Below are positions 42,071-53,989 of a stretch of 64,000 bases of DNA, piece by piece. How positions within the stretch are numbered: position 1 is the first letter of the stretch; every line of letters begins with the position of its first letter. Source of the stretch: an uncultured bacterium (GTDB lineage Bacteria > Fidelibacterota > Marinisomatia > Marinisomatales > JACNKV01); contig CAYQZV010000004.1 in the NCBI GenBank assembly GCA_964422145.1, positions 53,323-117,322 of the forward strand. The letters are read 5' to 3'. Under the pieces are notes generated by a model. That model worked only from the letters and a program-made list of their open reading frames with translations. It did no database searches and was not told the origin of the DNA. Both the position numbers and the translations under genes were made by a program.

Positions 42071-43435
42071 ATGTTATATGCCTTAGTTAAGGGGATGGCA
42101 GTAACATCCGTCAAAACATTTTTCAACACGATTCAGGCTGAACATGTTGATACGATTCCAAAGGATGAACCAATCATTTTTACATCGAATCACCCCAATA
42201 CGATGATGGATCCGATTGTCATTGGGTACACCTGCCGGAAAAAACTGTACTTTTTTGCAAAAAGCACCTTATTTAAGAATCCGATAGCGGGATGGTTTCT
42301 TAAGCGGATGAATATTGTACCTGTTTATCGAAAACAGGACGATCCGAAGAAGATGCATCGGAATGAAGAAACCTTCAGGAAGGGATTTGATATCTTAAAA
42401 CAAAACAAGTCCTTTCTTATCTTCCCGGAAGGGGTATCAACGGGAGATCGCGTTCTGAGCGAGATCAAAACCGGAGCGGCTCGAATCGGTTTAGGTTCGG
42501 AAAAAGAAAACGGATGGAATCTCGGTGTAAAAATCATCCCGGTAGGATTAAACTATTCTCATGCCGTTCAATTCCGCAGCGATGTGTTGGTTCGGTACGG
42601 AAAGCCCATTGTCTTAGCTGATTATCGGGACTTGTATGAAGCAGATGAAATGGAAGCAGTTCACCAACTCACAACCCAGATCGAAACCGCATTGTCCAAG
42701 CTGACAATAACGGTGAAAGACCTTGAAATGCAGGAAATTGTTGAAGCCCTTGAAACCATTTACAAACAGGAGCTCGCATCGGATCTTGGGATGGAGATCA
42801 AAGACAAATCTGAAGATTTTTCAGTCACAAAAGGATTAATCAATGCTGTGGAATGGTATTACTCAAATCAGCCGAAAAAGACTGAAATCTTCACCAAAAT
42901 GCTGCATAAATATCAGCGTATCTTGTATCGGCTAAAAATAAAAGATGAGTTCTTAGATCCGAATCAAGCGAGCATTTCTTTTGCTAAGAGAGTTTGGGTT
43001 CTCTCTTATTTCGTTTTGCTTTCCCCGGTGTTCTTGTTTGGCGTGATCGCCAATATTATTCCGTATAAGTTTCCCCGATGGTATGCTGAGCATTTTGTAA
43101 AATACAAAGCCGAAATTGCTTCATGGAAAATGGTAACCGGGACGAGTGTGTTCTTGATTTTCTACTCAATAGAAATTTTACTTTTTTACTTATTATCGCA
43201 AAGCGTTTTATGGACGATATTATTCATTTTTTCTCTCATTCCCAGCGGGAATTTTGTTTTGAAATACAATCAAAAAGTCAGAGATTACCGGCAACATTTG
43301 CGATTCATATCTGTTTTTTACCGAAAACGTAATTTGATTTACGAATTGATTAAACAGCGTCAAGAGTTGATCGATTTCTTGAATACGTGTAAAAAAGAGT
43401 ATATGGATGCAGTGATATTACCTGAATCCAAGTAA
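42071..43435 (+). CDS. PlsC-family lysophospholipid acyltransferase with C-terminal TMs
   Basis: NHPNTMMD (HxxxxD), PVYR, FPEG, KTGAAR. Confidence 0.9.
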   Translation: MLYALVKGMAVTSVKTFFNTIQAEHVDTIPKDEPIIFTSNHPNTMMDPIVIGYTCRKKLYFFAKSTLFKNPIAGWFLKRMNIVPVYRKQDDPKKMHRNEETFRKGFDILKQNKSFLIFPEGVSTGDRVLSEIKTGAARIGLGSEKENGWNLGVKIIPVGLNYSHAVQFRSDVLVRYGKPIVLADYRDLYEADEMEAVHQLTTQIETALSKLTITVKDLEMQEIVEALETIYKQELASDLGMEIKDKSEDFSVTKGLINAVEWYYSNQPKKTEIFTKMLHKYQRILYRLKIKDEFLDPNQASISFAKRVWVLSYFVLLSPVFLFGVIANIIPYKFPRWYAEHFVKYKAEIASWKMVTGTSVFLIFYSIEILLFYLLSQSVLWTILFIFSLIPSGNFVLKYNQKVRDYRQHLRFISVFYRKRNLIYELIKQRQELIDFLNTCKKEYMDAVILPESK

Positions 43436-43492
43436 TTACATAGTTATTCATTTACTGATAAGTAAGAATTGATCAATTCATAGGAGAATCAA

Positions 43493-44317
43493 ATGGTCAT
43501 TGCCACAATTGTTGGGTTGATTGTAGGTTTAATCTTAATCGGGCTAGGAATGTTTGACAGTACAAATGGCGGAGTTCCTTCTACTTTTTTTCAATTACAG
43601 GGGTTGGCTATTGTTTTCGGCGGTACGTTTGCGGCAACGCTTGTTAATTATCGTTTTTCTCATGTAACCCAAATGTTTAAAATCGCCGGACAGGCTTTTT
43701 TCGGCAAAAACCAGCAGGATTCTGCTTCTTTAATTAAACATTTTGTACATCTCAGTCAGCTCGCCAGAAAAAAAGGCCTTACTGAGTTAGAAAAAAAATT
43801 ACCGCATATTGATGGAAATTATATGAAGATCGGTTTAGAATATGCCATCATCGAAAAAGACAAAGATAGGCTCGAAAAATTCTTGGATAATGAACTGGCG
43901 AACATGGTAAAACGACATCAGTACGGACATGAACTGTTTTTTAACATGGGTTCCTATGCCCCGGCATTTGGATTATTGGGGACAGTTATGGGGCTTATCT
44001 TAATGATGCACGGACAAGCCACCACCAGTTCCGTTGCAGATTTTGCCAACCAATTTGGTGATCCTTTGCAGGGGTTATTAAAGAATATGGGGGTTGCACT
44101 TGTCACCACATTTTATGGTGTGTTATTGTCTAACTTATTTTTTATTCCCATTGCGGGTAAGCTGCAAAATCGAACCCATGAGGAGGTTCATATCTGTGAA
44201 ATGATCAAAACCGGAATTATCGGTATTCACCAAAAAGAACATTGGCTGATGATCCAAGAGAAGTTGATCACATTTGTGGATAAAGAATCGAGAGAGACTA
44301 TTCGAAATACAGCATGA
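43493..44317 (+). CDS. motA: MotA/PomA-type stator A subunit
   Basis: IVFGGT, ARKKGLTELE, APAFGLLGTVMGLI, MGVALVTTFYG...PIAGKL. Confidence 0.88.
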   Translation: MVIATIVGLIVGLILIGLGMFDSTNGGVPSTFFQLQGLAIVFGGTFAATLVNYRFSHVTQMFKIAGQAFFGKNQQDSASLIKHFVHLSQLARKKGLTELEKKLPHIDGNYMKIGLEYAIIEKDKDRLEKFLDNELANMVKRHQYGHELFFNMGSYAPAFGLLGTVMGLILMMHGQATTSSVADFANQFGDPLQGLLKNMGVALVTTFYGVLLSNLFFIPIAGKLQNRTHEEVHICEMIKTGIIGIHQKEHWLMIQEKLITFVDKESRETIRNTA

Positions 44318-45021
44318 CTCCCCCTCCTGTTAAACAGTCTAATAAAAATCACCGATGGATGCTGACTTATGCTTCTCTCATTACAGCCTTATTGGCTTTC
44401 TTTATCTTTTTTGTATTCCGTGCAGAAAAAGCGGTTCAGTCAAAATTCCGAATTGCAGATCAGTTAAAAAACAGTATTTATGAACAGGTTATTTGGGAAA
44501 AAACTCAAAATAATTTAACCTGGCTACATGTTGAAAATACCGGAAGTAAAGGCGTAAAACTTCTCATTCCATCAACCATTACTGATCCATCAGCTTTAGA
44601 AAATAATATTTCGATGTTTAACTCGGGCGATGATGATATCAGAACAGACTTTGCCCCTTATATCAACTCAGTTGTGGATATCATTGGAAAATTAGAATTG
44701 GATCAAGTCCAAATTAAATATTCAAATGAGATAACATATTTACAAACCTCAAATAAAGATTTAAGAATGGATATTGTTATAGAGGGACACACTGATCGAA
44801 GACCTATTATGAATGACCATTTCAAGAATAACTGGGAATTAAGTATTGCGCGTGCTAACAATGTGATGATGACATTACGGGAAAAACTTCAACTGCCTTA
44901 TCGGTTGTTTTCTATTGCGGGATACGGTCCGTTTCATCCTTTGCGTGACCATGATAATTTTGAAGAAAACAGGCGGGTGGAAATCTATATCAACGCACAG
45001 CTGGTTTCTTTAAATGGGTAG
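44314..45021 (+). CDS. motB: MotB-like subunit 1 (conserved TM Asp replaced by Ser)
   Basis: WMLTYASLITALLAFF; OmpA-like domain IEGHTD, NWELSIARA, AGYG, NRRVEI. Confidence 0.82.
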   Translation: MTPPPVKQSNKNHRWMLTYASLITALLAFFIFFVFRAEKAVQSKFRIADQLKNSIYEQVIWEKTQNNLTWLHVENTGSKGVKLLIPSTITDPSALENNISMFNSGDDDIRTDFAPYINSVVDIIGKLELDQVQIKYSNEITYLQTSNKDLRMDIVIEGHTDRRPIMNDHFKNNWELSIARANNVMMTLREKLQLPYRLFSIAGYGPFHPLRDHDNFEENRRVEIYINAQLVSLNG

Positions 45022-45706
45022 CACAAAATTACGATCGTCGTCTGAGCGGGCTCGCGGTTCCTGGCTTTTATCATATGGAGATGTTGCGACCCTTTTGATA
45101 TGCTTTTTCATCATGACGCTTATATCAAGATCCGGTGATATATCGAGGGTTCATCAATGGGTCTACAACTGTTTGGAGGAAAGTTCGATCGAATTAAACC
45201 GCGTTGTATCTCAAACAAATGATCACACTTATACGGTATCACACGATACAAAAGGGATTCGTCTTACCCTTAGAAATCCCAATATGTTCGATCTCGGAAA
45301 AGCAGACCCTCTTCCTCTCTTTCGTTCTCAGTTACAATCATTGGCACGCGGAATTTCAGAATTGAATATTTTTCACCTGGAAGCCGTCCCCGAATATGAC
45401 ACATGGATTGAAAACTATGATCGGATCGGACTTGAGTGGAATGTGGAAATACGAATCGAAGGGCACACAGATAATATCCCGTTAATCGCGGGATCTGACT
45501 ACCGAAACAATTGGGAGTTAAGTGCCGCAAGGGCGCAATCGATCATGCGAATTCTGTATGAATTCAGTGATTTGCCTGAATCACAATTTGCCATCGCAGG
45601 ATTCGGTGAGCACCGACCGATCACTAAAAATATCAGCATATCTGATCGTGAAATCAATCGAAGGGTAGAAATTTTTATCAATGCTTCATTGGTGGAAAAA
45701 TCATAA
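45014..45706 (+). CDS. motB: MotB-like subunit 2 (TM Asp retained)
   Basis: WLLSYGDVATLLICFF; IEGHTD, NWELSAARA, AGFGE, NRRVEI. Confidence 0.85.
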   Translation: MGSTKLRSSSERARGSWLLSYGDVATLLICFFIMTLISRSGDISRVHQWVYNCLEESSIELNRVVSQTNDHTYTVSHDTKGIRLTLRNPNMFDLGKADPLPLFRSQLQSLARGISELNIFHLEAVPEYDTWIENYDRIGLEWNVEIRIEGHTDNIPLIAGSDYRNNWELSAARAQSIMRILYEFSDLPESQFAIAGFGEHRPITKNISISDREINRRVEIFINASLVEKS

Positions 45707-48104: not shown

Positions 48105-48896
48105 ATGACCCGGACCCTTACAGTTTCTCTCGTAGTGAGAATTGTTTTGGTTTCTGTCCTATCTGCATTCGCGGTAGGAGGAATCATCCTTGGGTATGGT
48201 CTGAAATATTATCCTGATCAACAAGTTTATTATACCCAATTATCCCTGTTTATCGGTCAGGGACTGATTGTCATACCTGCGTTAATTTTTTTAAAACTTC
48301 GTAAAGAAAATCTTCGGGCGCGATTTCGCCTACATCCAATCTCGTTGCGAGTTGCTCTGTCCGTCATAGTTCTATCCCTTGGAGTAATTATCTTATCGGA
48401 TGAAATGGATAAAATTGCCAATCTTATTTACCCGTTGCCGAACTCAATGGAAAAAGTAGGTGATGTAATTCAGTTAAATTCATTTACGTCAATTTTTCTA
48501 GTCCTCCCGACGATTGTCCTCATCGCACCGTTGGGCGAAGAATTACTCTTTCGGGGATTTTTACAAAAGTTTTTAGAAGATCATTGGCAAGACATAACAA
48601 AAGCTGTGTTGGTCACAGGAATGTTTTTTGCCTTGATTCACTTGAATCCGTACTGGATCATTCAAATTTATTTTCTGGGTGTAATCTTGGGTTATCTTGC
48701 CTGGCGTACGGGATCAATTATCTCTAGCGTTATATTACACGGAATGAATAACGGGATTGCTTTGTTGTTTGTCAACTGGGAAAATATTGATTTATACTAT
48801 AGTGGACATGTTTCCCCTATTTTACTTGTTTTTGCTGCAATCTTTGTTTATTTTGGTTTCAAATGGCTTCATAAATCATTGGAGATTGAACAATGA
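48105..48896 (+). CDS. CPBP/CAAX-family intramembrane metalloprotease
   Basis: EELLFRG, FALIH, HGMNN. Confidence 0.92.
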   Translation: MTRTLTVSLVVRIVLVSVLSAFAVGGIILGYGLKYYPDQQVYYTQLSLFIGQGLIVIPALIFLKLRKENLRARFRLHPISLRVALSVIVLSLGVIILSDEMDKIANLIYPLPNSMEKVGDVIQLNSFTSIFLVLPTIVLIAPLGEELLFRGFLQKFLEDHWQDITKAVLVTGMFFALIHLNPYWIIQIYFLGVILGYLAWRTGSIISSVILHGMNNGIALLFVNWENIDLYYSGHVSPILLVFAAIFVYFGFKWLHKSLEIEQ

Positions 48897-50263
48897 AAAA
48901 AGAAATGTTCGTTCATGAGATCACGGTTTTGCGGGATACGTTCAGACGGTTACTCCGCCGGCACGCAAAAACCAATCTGATCAAATTGATTCAAAAAACT
49001 CACCCGGCTGATCTGGCTGTTCTCTTTCGATATTTCACGGATACCGAACAACTCACATTGTTCTCATATATGGTTGAGGACGAACATACCGCAGAAGTGA
49101 TGGCCGAACTTGATGAATCCATTTTATTGAATTTATTAGAGAATGAAGATCCGGTGCGAATTGTACGGATTTTCCAACAGCTTGGATCAAATGATCAAGC
49201 CAACATCTTGAACTTGCTCTCGGAGGAAAAAGTACAATCTATTTTGGATTTGATGAAGGAAGAAGAGCAGGAAGAAGTCGAGGAAATTCTTGGATACCCC
49301 GAAGACAGTGCTGGGAGCATTATGTCAACGGATGTATTCACACTCCATGAGGAAACAACCGCTGAAGAAGCCATCCATTCTCTTCAGTATCAAGATGATG
49401 CTGAAATGGTCTTTTATCTTTACATCACAGATGATGACGGATGTTTATCCGGTGTGATCTCTTTGCGTGATCTGGTGACGACTCCGCCTGAAGTTCTTTT
49501 AAAAGACATTATGACAAAACATGTTCACTATGTTCGTGCCGAAACAGATCAAGAAGAAGTTGCGAGTATTGTTTCGTTGTATAACTATTTGGCTCTGCCT
49601 GTCGTGGATTCTGAGAATACGATTCTGGGAATTGTTACTGTTGATGATGTCGTGGATGTTATCCGCGAAGAGGCAACGGAAGATTTTCTTCAGATGGCTG
49701 GTGCCGGTAAAGACCGGGAAATTTTATTGAAAAACTCCTGGGAAAATGCACGATCCCGACTGCCCTGGTTATTTGCAAGCTGGGTCGGGGGTGTGGTTGC
49801 CGCATCGATCATCGGTGCATTTGAACACATTCTGGAAGTCACAATGGCGCTGACGGCTTTCATCCCTGTCATCATTGGTATGGGCGGTAATATCGGGACA
49901 CAAAGTTCAACCATTGTTGTACGAGGTTTGGCCACCGGACGTGTCAATATCGGTGATGATTTTAAACTGATCCTAAAAGAGACAAGTGTCGGATTGATTT
50001 TAGGTGTCCTGTATGGTTTGATGCTTGGATTATTTGCGATATTCAAATTTATTGATGCTCCGCCGATGTTAGGTCTTGTGGTTGGATTAAGCATTTGTCT
50101 CTCCATGTTGATAGCTACATTCATCGGAACGCTCGTTCCGCTGCTGCTTCGAAAAATGGATATCGATCCTGCCATTGCCACCGGACCTTTTGTTACAACC
50201 AGCATTGATATTCTTGGGGTTGCCGCTTACTTCTTAATTGCGACATCGCTTCTTCCTATTTAA
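48893..50263 (+). CDS. mgtE: Magnesium transporter MgtE
   Basis: MgtE_N and CBS pair, RLPWL, GMGGNIGTQ, DPAIATGPFVTTSIDI. Confidence 0.97.
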   Translation: MKKEMFVHEITVLRDTFRRLLRRHAKTNLIKLIQKTHPADLAVLFRYFTDTEQLTLFSYMVEDEHTAEVMAELDESILLNLLENEDPVRIVRIFQQLGSNDQANILNLLSEEKVQSILDLMKEEEQEEVEEILGYPEDSAGSIMSTDVFTLHEETTAEEAIHSLQYQDDAEMVFYLYITDDDGCLSGVISLRDLVTTPPEVLLKDIMTKHVHYVRAETDQEEVASIVSLYNYLALPVVDSENTILGIVTVDDVVDVIREEATEDFLQMAGAGKDREILLKNSWENARSRLPWLFASWVGGVVAASIIGAFEHILEVTMALTAFIPVIIGMGGNIGTQSSTIVVRGLATGRVNIGDDFKLILKETSVGLILGVLYGLMLGLFAIFKFIDAPPMLGLVVGLSICLSMLIATFIGTLVPLLLRKMDIDPAIATGPFVTTSIDILGVAAYFLIATSLLPI

Positions 50264-52924: not shown

Positions 52925-53989
52925 TTGACTGCTGTCTTTCGTTCGTTTTCTCTTGGGGTAATTCTTTTCCTGCTCACAGGATGTTCTCAGAATCCTCAAC
53001 CTAAGCCGGATGCGTTGGTATTTCCGCCGATAACCCATACCTTTGGACAGGATTCCCTTCATGTCTTCATTTCAGGACACAAAACTCATTTTGTAAACCC
53101 AATTCATCAAGACAGTCTTTTGTTCTCAGCGGGTGCAGAAATATTGAACCATAAGCTTTTGGGTTTTGAAGATACATCATTAAGACAATTTATCCGTGAA
53201 GAACTTCGTCCGGAAGATGTTACCCATTTAGCGTGGTTGGAACTATCAACCGTTATACATGATAAATCAATCCTCACGCTTGATTACCTGATCAATTATT
53301 CATCGATAGATAAGTTTATTTCCGCTGCGGTCGATAAACATTATCATAATGCTTCTTTGCCTATTGAACCCTTATTTGCCAACTCGACTCAACTGCCAAT
53401 GGTAAACGATTTCCAAAACACTCAGCTATTATTGCCGTGTGATTCAATCCCTGTTCCATTAAATCCATTGTTTTTACCAAATTCACCCCGGAATTACCGC
53501 AACGGCATCCATCGCGGGATTGATTTTCAGGCTAATTGGGGAACACCGATTCGCGCCGTGGCAGACGGAATTATAATTCGTGCAGATCAGCATTACGAAG
53601 AAATATCTCCTTCGTTTTTAGAAACCATTTTAGATCATGCTGAACTAACCGGACATACACCGTCAGATTTGTTTAACCACATACTTCTCGGGCGGGCGGT
53701 GATCATCGACCATGGATTTAATGTCGTCCCCGGATATCGTTCTATTTCTATTCATGCTCACCTCTCGGAAATTTATCCGTATATTACTCGCGGATATGAA
53801 ATCAAAAAGGGGGATTACTTCGGTAAAGTCGGAAACTCCGGTTTAATGAGCGCCACAAAAGGAAATCAAGGTGGGACTCATCTTCATTTTGAATTCATTA
53901 TACAAAACAAAGACGGAGAATATTATCTTGGGCAAACTCTCGAATATTCTCCTCTAATCGAATTACTACAATCTATTTTTATAAATTAG
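52925..53989 (+). CDS. M23-family metallopeptidase lipoprotein
   Basis: Lipobox LTGC; HRGIDF, HAHLS, HLHFE. Confidence 0.9.
   Translation: MTAVFRSFSLGVILFLLTGCSQNPQPKPDALVFPPITHTFGQDSLHVFISGHKTHFVNPIHQDSLLFSAGAEILNHKLLGFEDTSLRQFIREELRPEDVTHLAWLELSTVIHDKSILTLDYLINYSSIDKFISAAVDKHYHNASLPIEPLFANSTQLPMVNDFQNTQLLLPCDSIPVPLNPLFLPNSPRNYRNGIHRGIDFQANWGTPIRAVADGIIIRADQHYEEISPSFLETILDHAELTGHTPSDLFNHILLGRAVIIDHGFNVVPGYRSISIHAHLSEIYPYITRGYEIKKGDYFGKVGNSGLMSATKGNQGGTHLHFEFIIQNKDGEYYLGQTLEYSPLIELLQSIFIN

Follow-up and report, generated by a model that had tools for sequence, protein, structure and literature searches.

A stator operon with one MotA and two unlike MotB subunits, one usually lacking the channel aspartate, is conserved in two bacterial phyla

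A stretch of 64,000 nucleotides from an uncultured bacterium of the order Marinisomatales (positions 53,323 to 117,322 of contig 4, CAYQZV010000004.1, assembly GCA_964422145.1; hereafter the window) carries a motA gene followed by two different motB genes, motB1 and motB2, of which motB1 codes for serine at the position of the ion-binding aspartate. Comparison of 76 such loci revealed that this trio is a distinct, old three-gene stator lineage present in two phyla, and that MotB1 is a conserved, selected and usually Asp-less paralogue, not a wreck. An earlier sequence-only reading of the window had described an orphan stator operon and had proposed an asymmetric motor in which five MotA chains surround one MotB1 and one MotB2, with a non-flagellar job. 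The operon, its codons and its conservation were upheld, and the remaining claims stood in part, as described below. We give an even chance to the reading that MotB1 and MotB2 form a heterodimer in one MotA ring, which conducts via MotB2 only and probably acts on a stand-alone FliG encoded on another contig.

The three open reading frames (ORFs) lie exactly at the coordinates given below and form one translationally coupled operon, the sequence showing overlaps of stop and start codons of 4 nt (ATGA) between motA and motB1 and of 8 nt (ATGGGTAG) between motB1 and motB2:

43483-43486, plus strand: GGAG, Shine-Dalgarno-like, 6 nt 5' of the motA ATG (direct read)
43493-44317, plus strand: motA, 274 amino acids, PomA/MotP-like stator A subunit of the triad lineage
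43766-43792, plus strand: codons of MotA R92 to E100 (R-x7-E stretch)
44314-45021, plus strand: motB1, 235 amino acids, with a MotB-type transmembrane (TM) helix, a plug-region match, an OmpA-like domain at about residues 142-221 and Ser at the channel-Asp site
44374-44376, plus strand: TCT, MotB1 Ser21, at the position of the ion-binding Asp
45014-45706, plus strand: motB2, MotB paralogue of 230 amino acids, with channel Asp23 and an OmpA-like domain at about residues 144-216
45080-45082, plus strand: GAT, MotB2 Asp23, the channel aspartate

The TM stretch of MotB1 reads R-W-M-L-T-Y-A-S-L up to and beyond Ser21, and that of MotB2 reads S-W-L-L-S-Y-G-D-V with Asp23. HMMER alignment to solved MotB chains placed Ser21 of MotB1 under the D of W-L-V-P-Y-A-D in the 6ysl B chain and also under the D of W-L-A-T-F-S-D in 6ysf/8ucs, residues that we take to be the channel Asp. 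Both the Asp-to-Ser exchange in MotB1 and the Asp of MotB2 were thus confirmed, and no acidic residue able to compensate was seen in the B1 helix. In Pfam searches MotA matched MotA_ExbB (PF01618, 4e-23), and both MotB1 and MotB2 exceeded the cut-offs of MotB_plug and OmpA, in agreement with the claim that both keep the OmpA-like anchor. The two MotBs share 33% identity overall and about 30% in their periplasmic regions. None of the NCBIfam equivalog cut-offs (MotA, MotP, PomA, MotB, MotS and MotD models) was reached: the best model for MotA was MotP, with 188.7 bits against a cut-off of 394, and the best scores of MotB1 and MotB2 were 85 bits against 301 and 100.2 bits against 283, respectively.

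Among 41 genomes of the order, MotB1 orthologues were found in nine (E 6e-59 or better, 47-75% identity), all nine with Ser at the Asp site and eight with an Asp-bearing MotB2 directly downstream, the ninth locus ending at a contig edge. In a sample of 301 genomes of the phylum, representing 104 genera, 46 genomes from 14 genera carried a MotB1 orthologue (E 1e-35 or better). Reading of 39 phylum loci (the remaining 37 carrier loci and two retrieved earlier) gave Asp in 19 B1s, Ser in 18 and Ala in one, with one lacking a readable motif, and an Asp-bearing B2 lay downstream in 38 of the 39. A search of MotB1 against 1.84 billion cluster representatives yielded 9232 matches at E 1e-3 and only nine at 1e-30; motif reading of the best 150 returned Asp in 119, Ser in nine, Ala in three, Gly in two and no motif match in 17, three of which carry Ser or Ala when inspected by eye, and the top matches among these 150 were the non-Asp sequences. 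When a genome collection was scanned with six non-Asp sequences, 28 loci were obtained, all in Gammaproteobacteria of the Thiomicrospira group and including the cultured Thiomicrorhabdus arctica DSM 13458, Hydrogenovibrio halophilus DSM 15072 and Thiomicrospira microaerophila ASL8-2. The order MotA, Asp-less MotB, Asp-bearing MotB was present in 26 of the 28, the other two being cut by contig ends, and the 26 B1s that were read carried Ser (13), Ala (nine) or Gly (four). These carriers are sulfur-oxidising and flagellated, and their trios are surrounded by housekeeping genes and a gene for a methyl-accepting chemotaxis protein. Over all sets the trio was complete in 72 of 76 loci, the four exceptions stopping at contig ends, and apart from these four no B1 without B2 was seen in the 76 loci. 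Conservation of the triad, in the fixed order MotA-B1-B2 across two phyla, was thereby established.

Several metagenome-assembled genome (MAG) records titled Francisella, one of them F. tularensis subsp. holarctica, also carry the trio (loci L062, L064-L066, L069 and L085). All five that were searched (L064-L066, L069 and L085) encode several MotAs in addition to a FliG of canonical length. Their trio genes group with Thiomicrospira-type records in the trees, and the titles look like mislabels.

In an IQ-TREE phylogeny of 102 MotBs, the B1 clade (35 rows, support 100/100) was sister to the B2 clade (34 rows, 100/98) with support 94/85, and the two clades mirrored each other, each splitting into this phylum and Gammaproteobacteria. 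A further group, type X, was sister to B1 plus B2 (99/96), and the flagellar-cluster and FliG-linked MotBs fell on the other side of the tree. The MotA tree was congruent, with 36 trio rows (Shimodaira-Hasegawa-like approximate likelihood ratio test, SH-aLRT, 97) sister to type X. Type X itself consists of a single MotA-MotB pair with Asp; it is carried by most FlhA-less genomes of the order, is absent from the source genome, is often followed by an unannotatable ORF of 194-201 amino acids (for example L061:7850-9364 and L056:12206-13746), and in one family (f13) adjoins the trio directly.

In the single pair of genomes with unsaturated synonymous sites (G029/G015), the ratio of nonsynonymous to synonymous substitution rates (dN/dS) was 0.022 for motA, 0.066 for motB1 and 0.049 for motB2. 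The relaxed selection on motB1 that had been considered was thus not borne out, this one pair indicating purifying selection. For the other pairs, in which the proportion of synonymous differences (pS) was saturated, the proportion of nonsynonymous differences (pN) was 0.12-0.27 for motB1 and close to that for motB2 (0.12-0.22). All three genes are intact in the window's FlhA-less genus, with pN of 0.11-0.27 against saturated pS. The B1 TM helix keeps the pattern W-x3-Y-x-[SAGD]-L-x-T-x2-L-A-F-F across the two phyla, W15, L22, T24, L27, A28, F29 and F30 being invariant and Y19 present in at least 90%; apart from the Asp, the MotB signature is thus retained, consistent with a subunit that has kept its place within the MotA ring. 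The motifs G-H-T-D and N-R-R-V-E are likewise invariant in the B1 family. The possibility that MotB1 is a decaying duplicate was discarded on the basis of dN/dS together with conservation across two phyla.

The Asp site of B1 was read in 73 sequences and held Ser in 40, Ala in ten, Gly in four and Asp in 19. The absence of Asp was therefore found in 54 of the 73 and in both phyla. B1 orthologues that retain Asp had been named in the earlier reading as grounds for its refutation, and this condition partly holds: 19 B1s carry Asp, all from one family (f24; 18 from genus g76, one from g84), and both states coexist within one genus. In a tree of 95 rows, the Asp-bearing B1s and three Ser-bearing ones formed a clade of 22 rows (support 99) nested inside Asp-less lineages, its sister carrying Ala, and parsimony gave two changes at the site. 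The Ser codons were TCN in 37 of 40 cases, the three Ser residues within the Asp clade being encoded by AGT/AGC, and the codons would fit a path from Ser (TCN) via Ala (GCN) and Asp (GAY) to Ser (AGY). The alternative topology, with f24 basal and the ancestral Asp kept, was not rejected by the approximately unbiased (AU) test (log-likelihood difference 7.57, p-AU 0.219). Whether family f24 regained or retained its Asp, the tree and codons imply that the residue was lost at least twice, and a single ancient loss is not tenable given the Asp-bearing B1s of f24. Ser as a substitute ion ligand is also unlikely, as Ser, Ala and Gly interchange at the B1 site as small neutral residues, which argues against such a role.

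MotA resembles solved MotA/PomA chains over its full length, with E about 3e-34 to 8ucs_C/6ysf_E over residues 7-268 and E 1.7e-26 to Vibrio PomA (8bri). Residues P157, P219, T205, T206 and Y208 are conserved in at least 95% of 67 aligned MotAs, the TM3 and TM4 prolines presumably being P173 and P222 in E. coli numbering. In E. coli MotA the R-x7-E stretch (R90/E98) contacts FliG, and the window MotA was said to keep this pair. R92 and E100 are indeed present, in A-R-K-K-G-L-T-E-L-E, and E100 occurs in 35 of 35 trio MotAs, but the Arg is not kept throughout: position 92 is R in five and K in four MotAs of the order-level set, and K (10), Q (8) or H (6) in Gammaproteobacteria. Lineage residues in the 35 trio MotAs were M20, D22, N151 and E236 (35/35 each) and Q175 (32/35). 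Residue 22 is acidic (D or E) whatever the state of B1 and so does not track the loss of Asp, and nor do N151 and Q175. The TM3-TM4 loop has about 31 residues in trio MotA versus 17-22 elsewhere (17 in the flagellar-cluster MotAs of relatives); it was dismissed as a trio-specific feature, being common to the single-MotB type X sister lineage.

The source genome (2.21 Mb, 94.5% complete) gave no match to FHIPEP/FlhA, YscJ_FliF, Flg_bbr_C or Flagellin_N in family searches. On contig 1 it encodes a three-domain FliG of 311 amino acids, with a second MotA/MotB pair lying a few genes away, in the following cluster:

contig 1, about 166.9-175.1 kb (L005:16897-19786 and L006:151-5081): CarboxypepD_reg protein (388 amino acids), TPR protein (461), MotA (262), MotB with Asp (251), an ORF of 223 amino acids on the other strand, an ORF of 145 amino acids, and FliG (311)

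The description of the trio as an orphan thus agrees with the lack of FlhA, FliF, rod and flagellin matches in the genome, but contig 1 encodes a FliG and a separate MotAB beside it, so that the trio is not fully orphan. This stand-alone FliG shares 54-72% identity with its counterparts in relatives and 22-23% with the flagellar type of FliG in flagellated relatives. About 26 residues are missing behind its N domain. When its C-terminal domain is compared with that of the flagellar type, three residues are absent from the R-D-E-L-Q stretch, around which charged residues (K-K, E, K-R) remain; this stretch corresponds to the charged ridge by which FliG touches MotA in E. coli.

Among the 41 genomes of the order, FlhA exceeded the cut-off in six and FliG_C in 36, mostly of the 308-313-amino-acid type. 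In the phylum sample, trio and FlhA occurred together in 17 genomes, the trio with FlhA not found in 29, FlhA without the trio in 48 and neither in 207. FliG (E 1e-10 or better) was present in 43 of 46 trio carriers versus 173 of 255 non-carriers, the three carriers without it being MAGs that are 87, 72 and 63% complete. In family f26 FliG was found in seven of 33 genomes, among them all four trio carriers, which belong to one genus. In the single-contig genome G077, which has the trio and in which FlhA was not found, a cassette of three TPR proteins, MotA, MotB, a FliF_C-like protein and FliG lies about 7 kb from the trio on the same strand, with eight unrelated genes between. These associations between FliG and the trio are suggestive, the carriers being phylogenetically clustered. 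Between cassette and trio, G077 also encodes a GAF plus HD/HD_5 (HD-GYP-like) protein (L107:10617-12305), which could hint at cyclic-nucleotide control.

The non-flagellar job assigned to the trio agrees with the lack of flagellar export and rod matches in the source genome, but the trio also occurs in flagellated Gammaproteobacteria and in flagellated relatives and is therefore not by nature non-flagellar. All ten gammaproteobacterial carriers tested have a canonical-length FliG, and they gave four to five MotB_plug matches each (five genomes) or five to seven MotA_ExbB matches each (the other five), from which we conclude that they are flagellated and have several stators. In cultured gammaproteobacterial carriers, tandem FliG_C-like matches in frames of 154-179 amino acids were also observed away from the flagellar FliG:

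tandem FliG_C-like pairs: G042:C1:1729478-1730225; G045:C330:136540-137295; G044:C1:2013921-2014678; G041:C3:50150-50882

A third MotA_ExbB gene of the source genome (ORF of 206 amino acids) lies on contig 1 at about 153.7-155.2 kb (L005:3744-5188) and is followed by ORFs of 133 and 136 amino acids. Judged by the position and size of the small ORFs alone, the set looks like ExbB with two ExbD-like genes, another layout of one A and two B genes.

In current 5:2 motor models (MotAB, PomAB, ExbBD and TolQR), the aspartates of the two B chains alternate in ion binding. In the heterodimer reading, MotB1 and MotB2 would form the axle within a single MotA pentamer, both chains being anchored to peptidoglycan by their OmpA-like domains, and ions would pass through the site formed by MotB2 Asp23. 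The Ser21 site of MotB1 would be dispensable, given that the residue there varies between Ser, Ala and Gly and is Asp in one family; the unit as a whole would strictly require a single ion-binding site rather than two. In the source genome, the cytoplasmic target of MotA would be the stand-alone FliG of contig 1, and the trio would constitute a second stator type for a flagellum-independent rotor. We regard as tentative, and clearly short of even, the fuller proposal of a natural single-site rotary ion motor, in which a MotA pentamer around MotB1/MotB2 with one ion-binding carboxylate would need about five rather than ten ions for each turn, or act as a ratchet, and would drive a stand-alone FliG rotor unrelated to swimming in flagellum-less SAR406-type bacteria.

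The pairing of the B chains was modelled from MotB1 (26-row alignment) and MotB2 (27-row alignment), with the B1 and B2 chains only. The model scored 0.68, the best of three controls scoring 0.00, and passed a mark that 58 of 80 solved complexes and two of 110 mismatched pairs attain; as the alignments were our own, these counts apply here only approximately. The runs agreed in at least 78% of contacts, with a partner pLDDT (predicted local distance difference test) of at least 76, and placed the interface in the OmpA-like domains (B1 174-185 and 196-204; B2 164-179 and 189-201). C-terminal MotB/PomB fragments have been solved (3cyp, 3s02 and 3wpw). Such fragments form homodimers through this interface, so the pass may reflect known structures that the model reproduces. 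The model thus supports, but does not show, binding of B1 to B2; it is compatible with such a pair and does not discriminate a heterodimer from homodimers.

Several points weigh against the heterodimer and its proposed target. As just described, the predicted interface cannot tell a heterodimer from homodimers, and the 5:1:1 stoichiometry is a proposed one. The 19 of 73 B1 orthologues with Asp mean that a two-site unit works in this lineage and that asymmetry is not required. In E. coli, MotB with a mutated Asp32 does not function and is dominant-negative, an indication that a mixed dimer fails in a canonical stator. As to FliG, the link is weak: 216 of the 301 phylum genomes have FliG anyway, the carriers belong to 14 of 104 genera and the FliG-less carriers are incomplete MAGs. 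Moreover, FliG already has its own adjoining MotAB, the trio lies on another contig in the source genome, and the MotAs of gammaproteobacterial trios have K (10), Q (8) or H (6) in place of R92. The gammaproteobacterial trio may simply be one more flagellar stator.

The main rival is that two homodimeric stators share one MotA, an explanation that we consider rather unlikely. MotA5-B2(2) would then be a working motor and MotA5-B1(2) a non-conducting brake, placeholder or static anchor competing for rotor sites or peptidoglycan, and an Asp-bearing B1 would build another functional stator, distinct in its periplasmic domain, which is also the usual assumption for MotB1 and MotB2 of Aquifex. Two homodimeric stators are straightforward for the 19 Asp-bearing B1s, the periplasmic regions of B1 and B2 are only about 30% identical, and a motA/motB1/motB2 operon of Aquifex was tested as two separate MotA/MotB pairs according to the available part of that study (PMC4525482). 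However, a unit without any Asp has no known means of using ion flow, and B1, which is under the same purifying selection as B2, has a TM signature that fits the MotA pore. With overlapping stop and start codons, the B1:B2 ratio would be held almost constant, which ill suits a brake that is to be regulated. B1 was never found without B2, and the fold model supports B1-B2 pairing, with the reservations given above.

MotB1 might also lie outside the MotA ring, as an accessory peptidoglycan-binding protein of the inner membrane that positions or stabilises MotA-MotB2 in the manner of periplasmic stator helpers. Its lack of Asp would suit such a role, as would the B1 of Thiomicrorhabdus arctica, which falls below the MotB_plug Pfam threshold and matches OmpA only. 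We hold this to be improbable, since the B1 TM helix keeps the MotB-specific pattern across two phyla, B1 is the sister clade of B2, and Asp can be found at the B1 site again, which is understandable only with the helix still in the usual place of a MotB helix. Least probable of all, and largely refuted by the selection data, is that the trio is an auxiliary flagellar stator that has become a functionless leftover in the flagellum-less source genome, or that MotB1 is a degenerating duplicate: the canonical-length FliG of the ten gammaproteobacterial carriers and FlhA in 17 of the 46 phylum carriers would fit, but FlhA was not found in the other 29, single-contig G077 included, the trio is intact in the window's FlhA-less genus with dN/dS of 0.02-0.07 where measurable, and the Asp-less state is kept across two phyla.

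The neighbours of the trio at 38.6-51.4 kb of the window encode RecO, a rhomboid protein, a PF01553 acyltransferase, Amidohydro_3, a SpoU methylase, a CAAX protease, MgtE and GT2. No conserved accessory genes were found around the trio, the neighbours being housekeeping genes that differ between lineages. A PF01553 acyltransferase gene lies immediately 5' of the trio in the window (42071-43435) and likewise in Thiomicrorhabdus arctica (L083:2298-3017), and about 6 kb 5' of it in G077 (L107:7513-8337), and does not adjoin the trio in G002 and G003 of the same genus; the adjacency is probably a coincidence. An MgtE gene with MgtE_N (window 48893-50263) is located 3 kb 3' of the trio, as also in G003, an adjacency that is not conserved in other families. 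This Pfam MgtE_N model is also matched by the stand-alone FliG.

A natural Asp-less MotB paralogue or a MotA-B1-B2 trio was not described in the literature that we found. In the available part of a survey of MotAB in 205 genomes (PMC12505986), Asp-less B subunits are not mentioned, and its supplements could list such genes; a term search of the available text of a preprint (10.1101/2025.10.28.684902) did not find heterodimer, D32 or tandem. A selected stator lineage in which one B chain is usually carboxylate-less, with the carboxylate present in one family, is a natural experiment on the alternating-Asp models. If the single-site reading proves true, the Asp, Ser (two codon families), Ala and Gly found at the B1 site of closely related species would form an allelic series for testing the alternating-site model of 5:2 motors. 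As the trio is found in cultured and non-pathogenic bacteria (Thiomicrorhabdus and Hydrogenovibrio), this is testable at the bench. The trio is further evidence that flagellar-type stators and FliG are retained for another mechanical task in abundant marine bacteria that lack flagella.

Among known systems, Zorya was excluded: MotA has 274 amino acids and its ZorA match (E 0.005) covers 78 residues, versus 648 positions in the PADLOC profile of ZorA, which has a long C-terminal tail, the ZorB matches of the trio MotBs (1e-16) reflect general MotB likeness, and the genes beside the trio encode an acyltransferase and an amidohydrolase, not ZorC/ZorD-type effectors. A TolQR/ExbBD/AglRQS type was likewise rejected, the matches of MotA to TolQ (E 0.0019) and ExbB (E 0.0075) being weak and far below cut-offs, and both B proteins having OmpA domains. 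Compared with the FliG, MotAB and TPR cluster of contig 1, the trio is a separate stator lineage, present in 46 of 301 genomes versus 216 of 301 for FliG. Canonical stators (C. sporogenes 6ysf/8ucs, B. subtilis 6ysl and Vibrio PomAB 8bri) resemble the trio in their full-length MotA (E 3e-34 to 1.7e-26), the TM3/TM4 Pro with Thr/Tyr, and the TM, plug and OmpA-like anchor of MotB, but have one B gene with Asp, whereas the trio has two unlike B genes, one without Asp.

According to the available part of the study by Takekawa et al. (2015, PMC4525482), Aquifex aeolicus has an operon like the trio, with one motA followed by two motB genes, a MotA that keeps the R/E pair, and MotBs that are strongly unlike in the periplasmic region. 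In contrast to the trio, in which the helices of B1 and B2 differ and B1 lacks Asp, the TM/N-terminal regions of Aquifex MotB1 and MotB2 are 97% identical (PMC4525482). Aquifex is flagellated, whereas the source genome has no flagellar export, MS-ring, rod or flagellin matches, and the Aquifex proteins stood outside the trees presented here. The AglR-AglQ-AglS gliding motor of Myxococcus shares with the trio one A-type and two different B-type subunits (PMC9389320 and PMC11761067, available parts), and the AlphaFold model reported in the latter is AglR5-AglQ1-AglS1, in which a pentameric ring encloses a heterodimeric axle and the output is non-flagellar. The trio differs in that AglRQS is TolQR-like (the 'generic' branch), with TolR-like rather than OmpA-like B domains and a conserved aspartate in both B subunits (PMC9389320).

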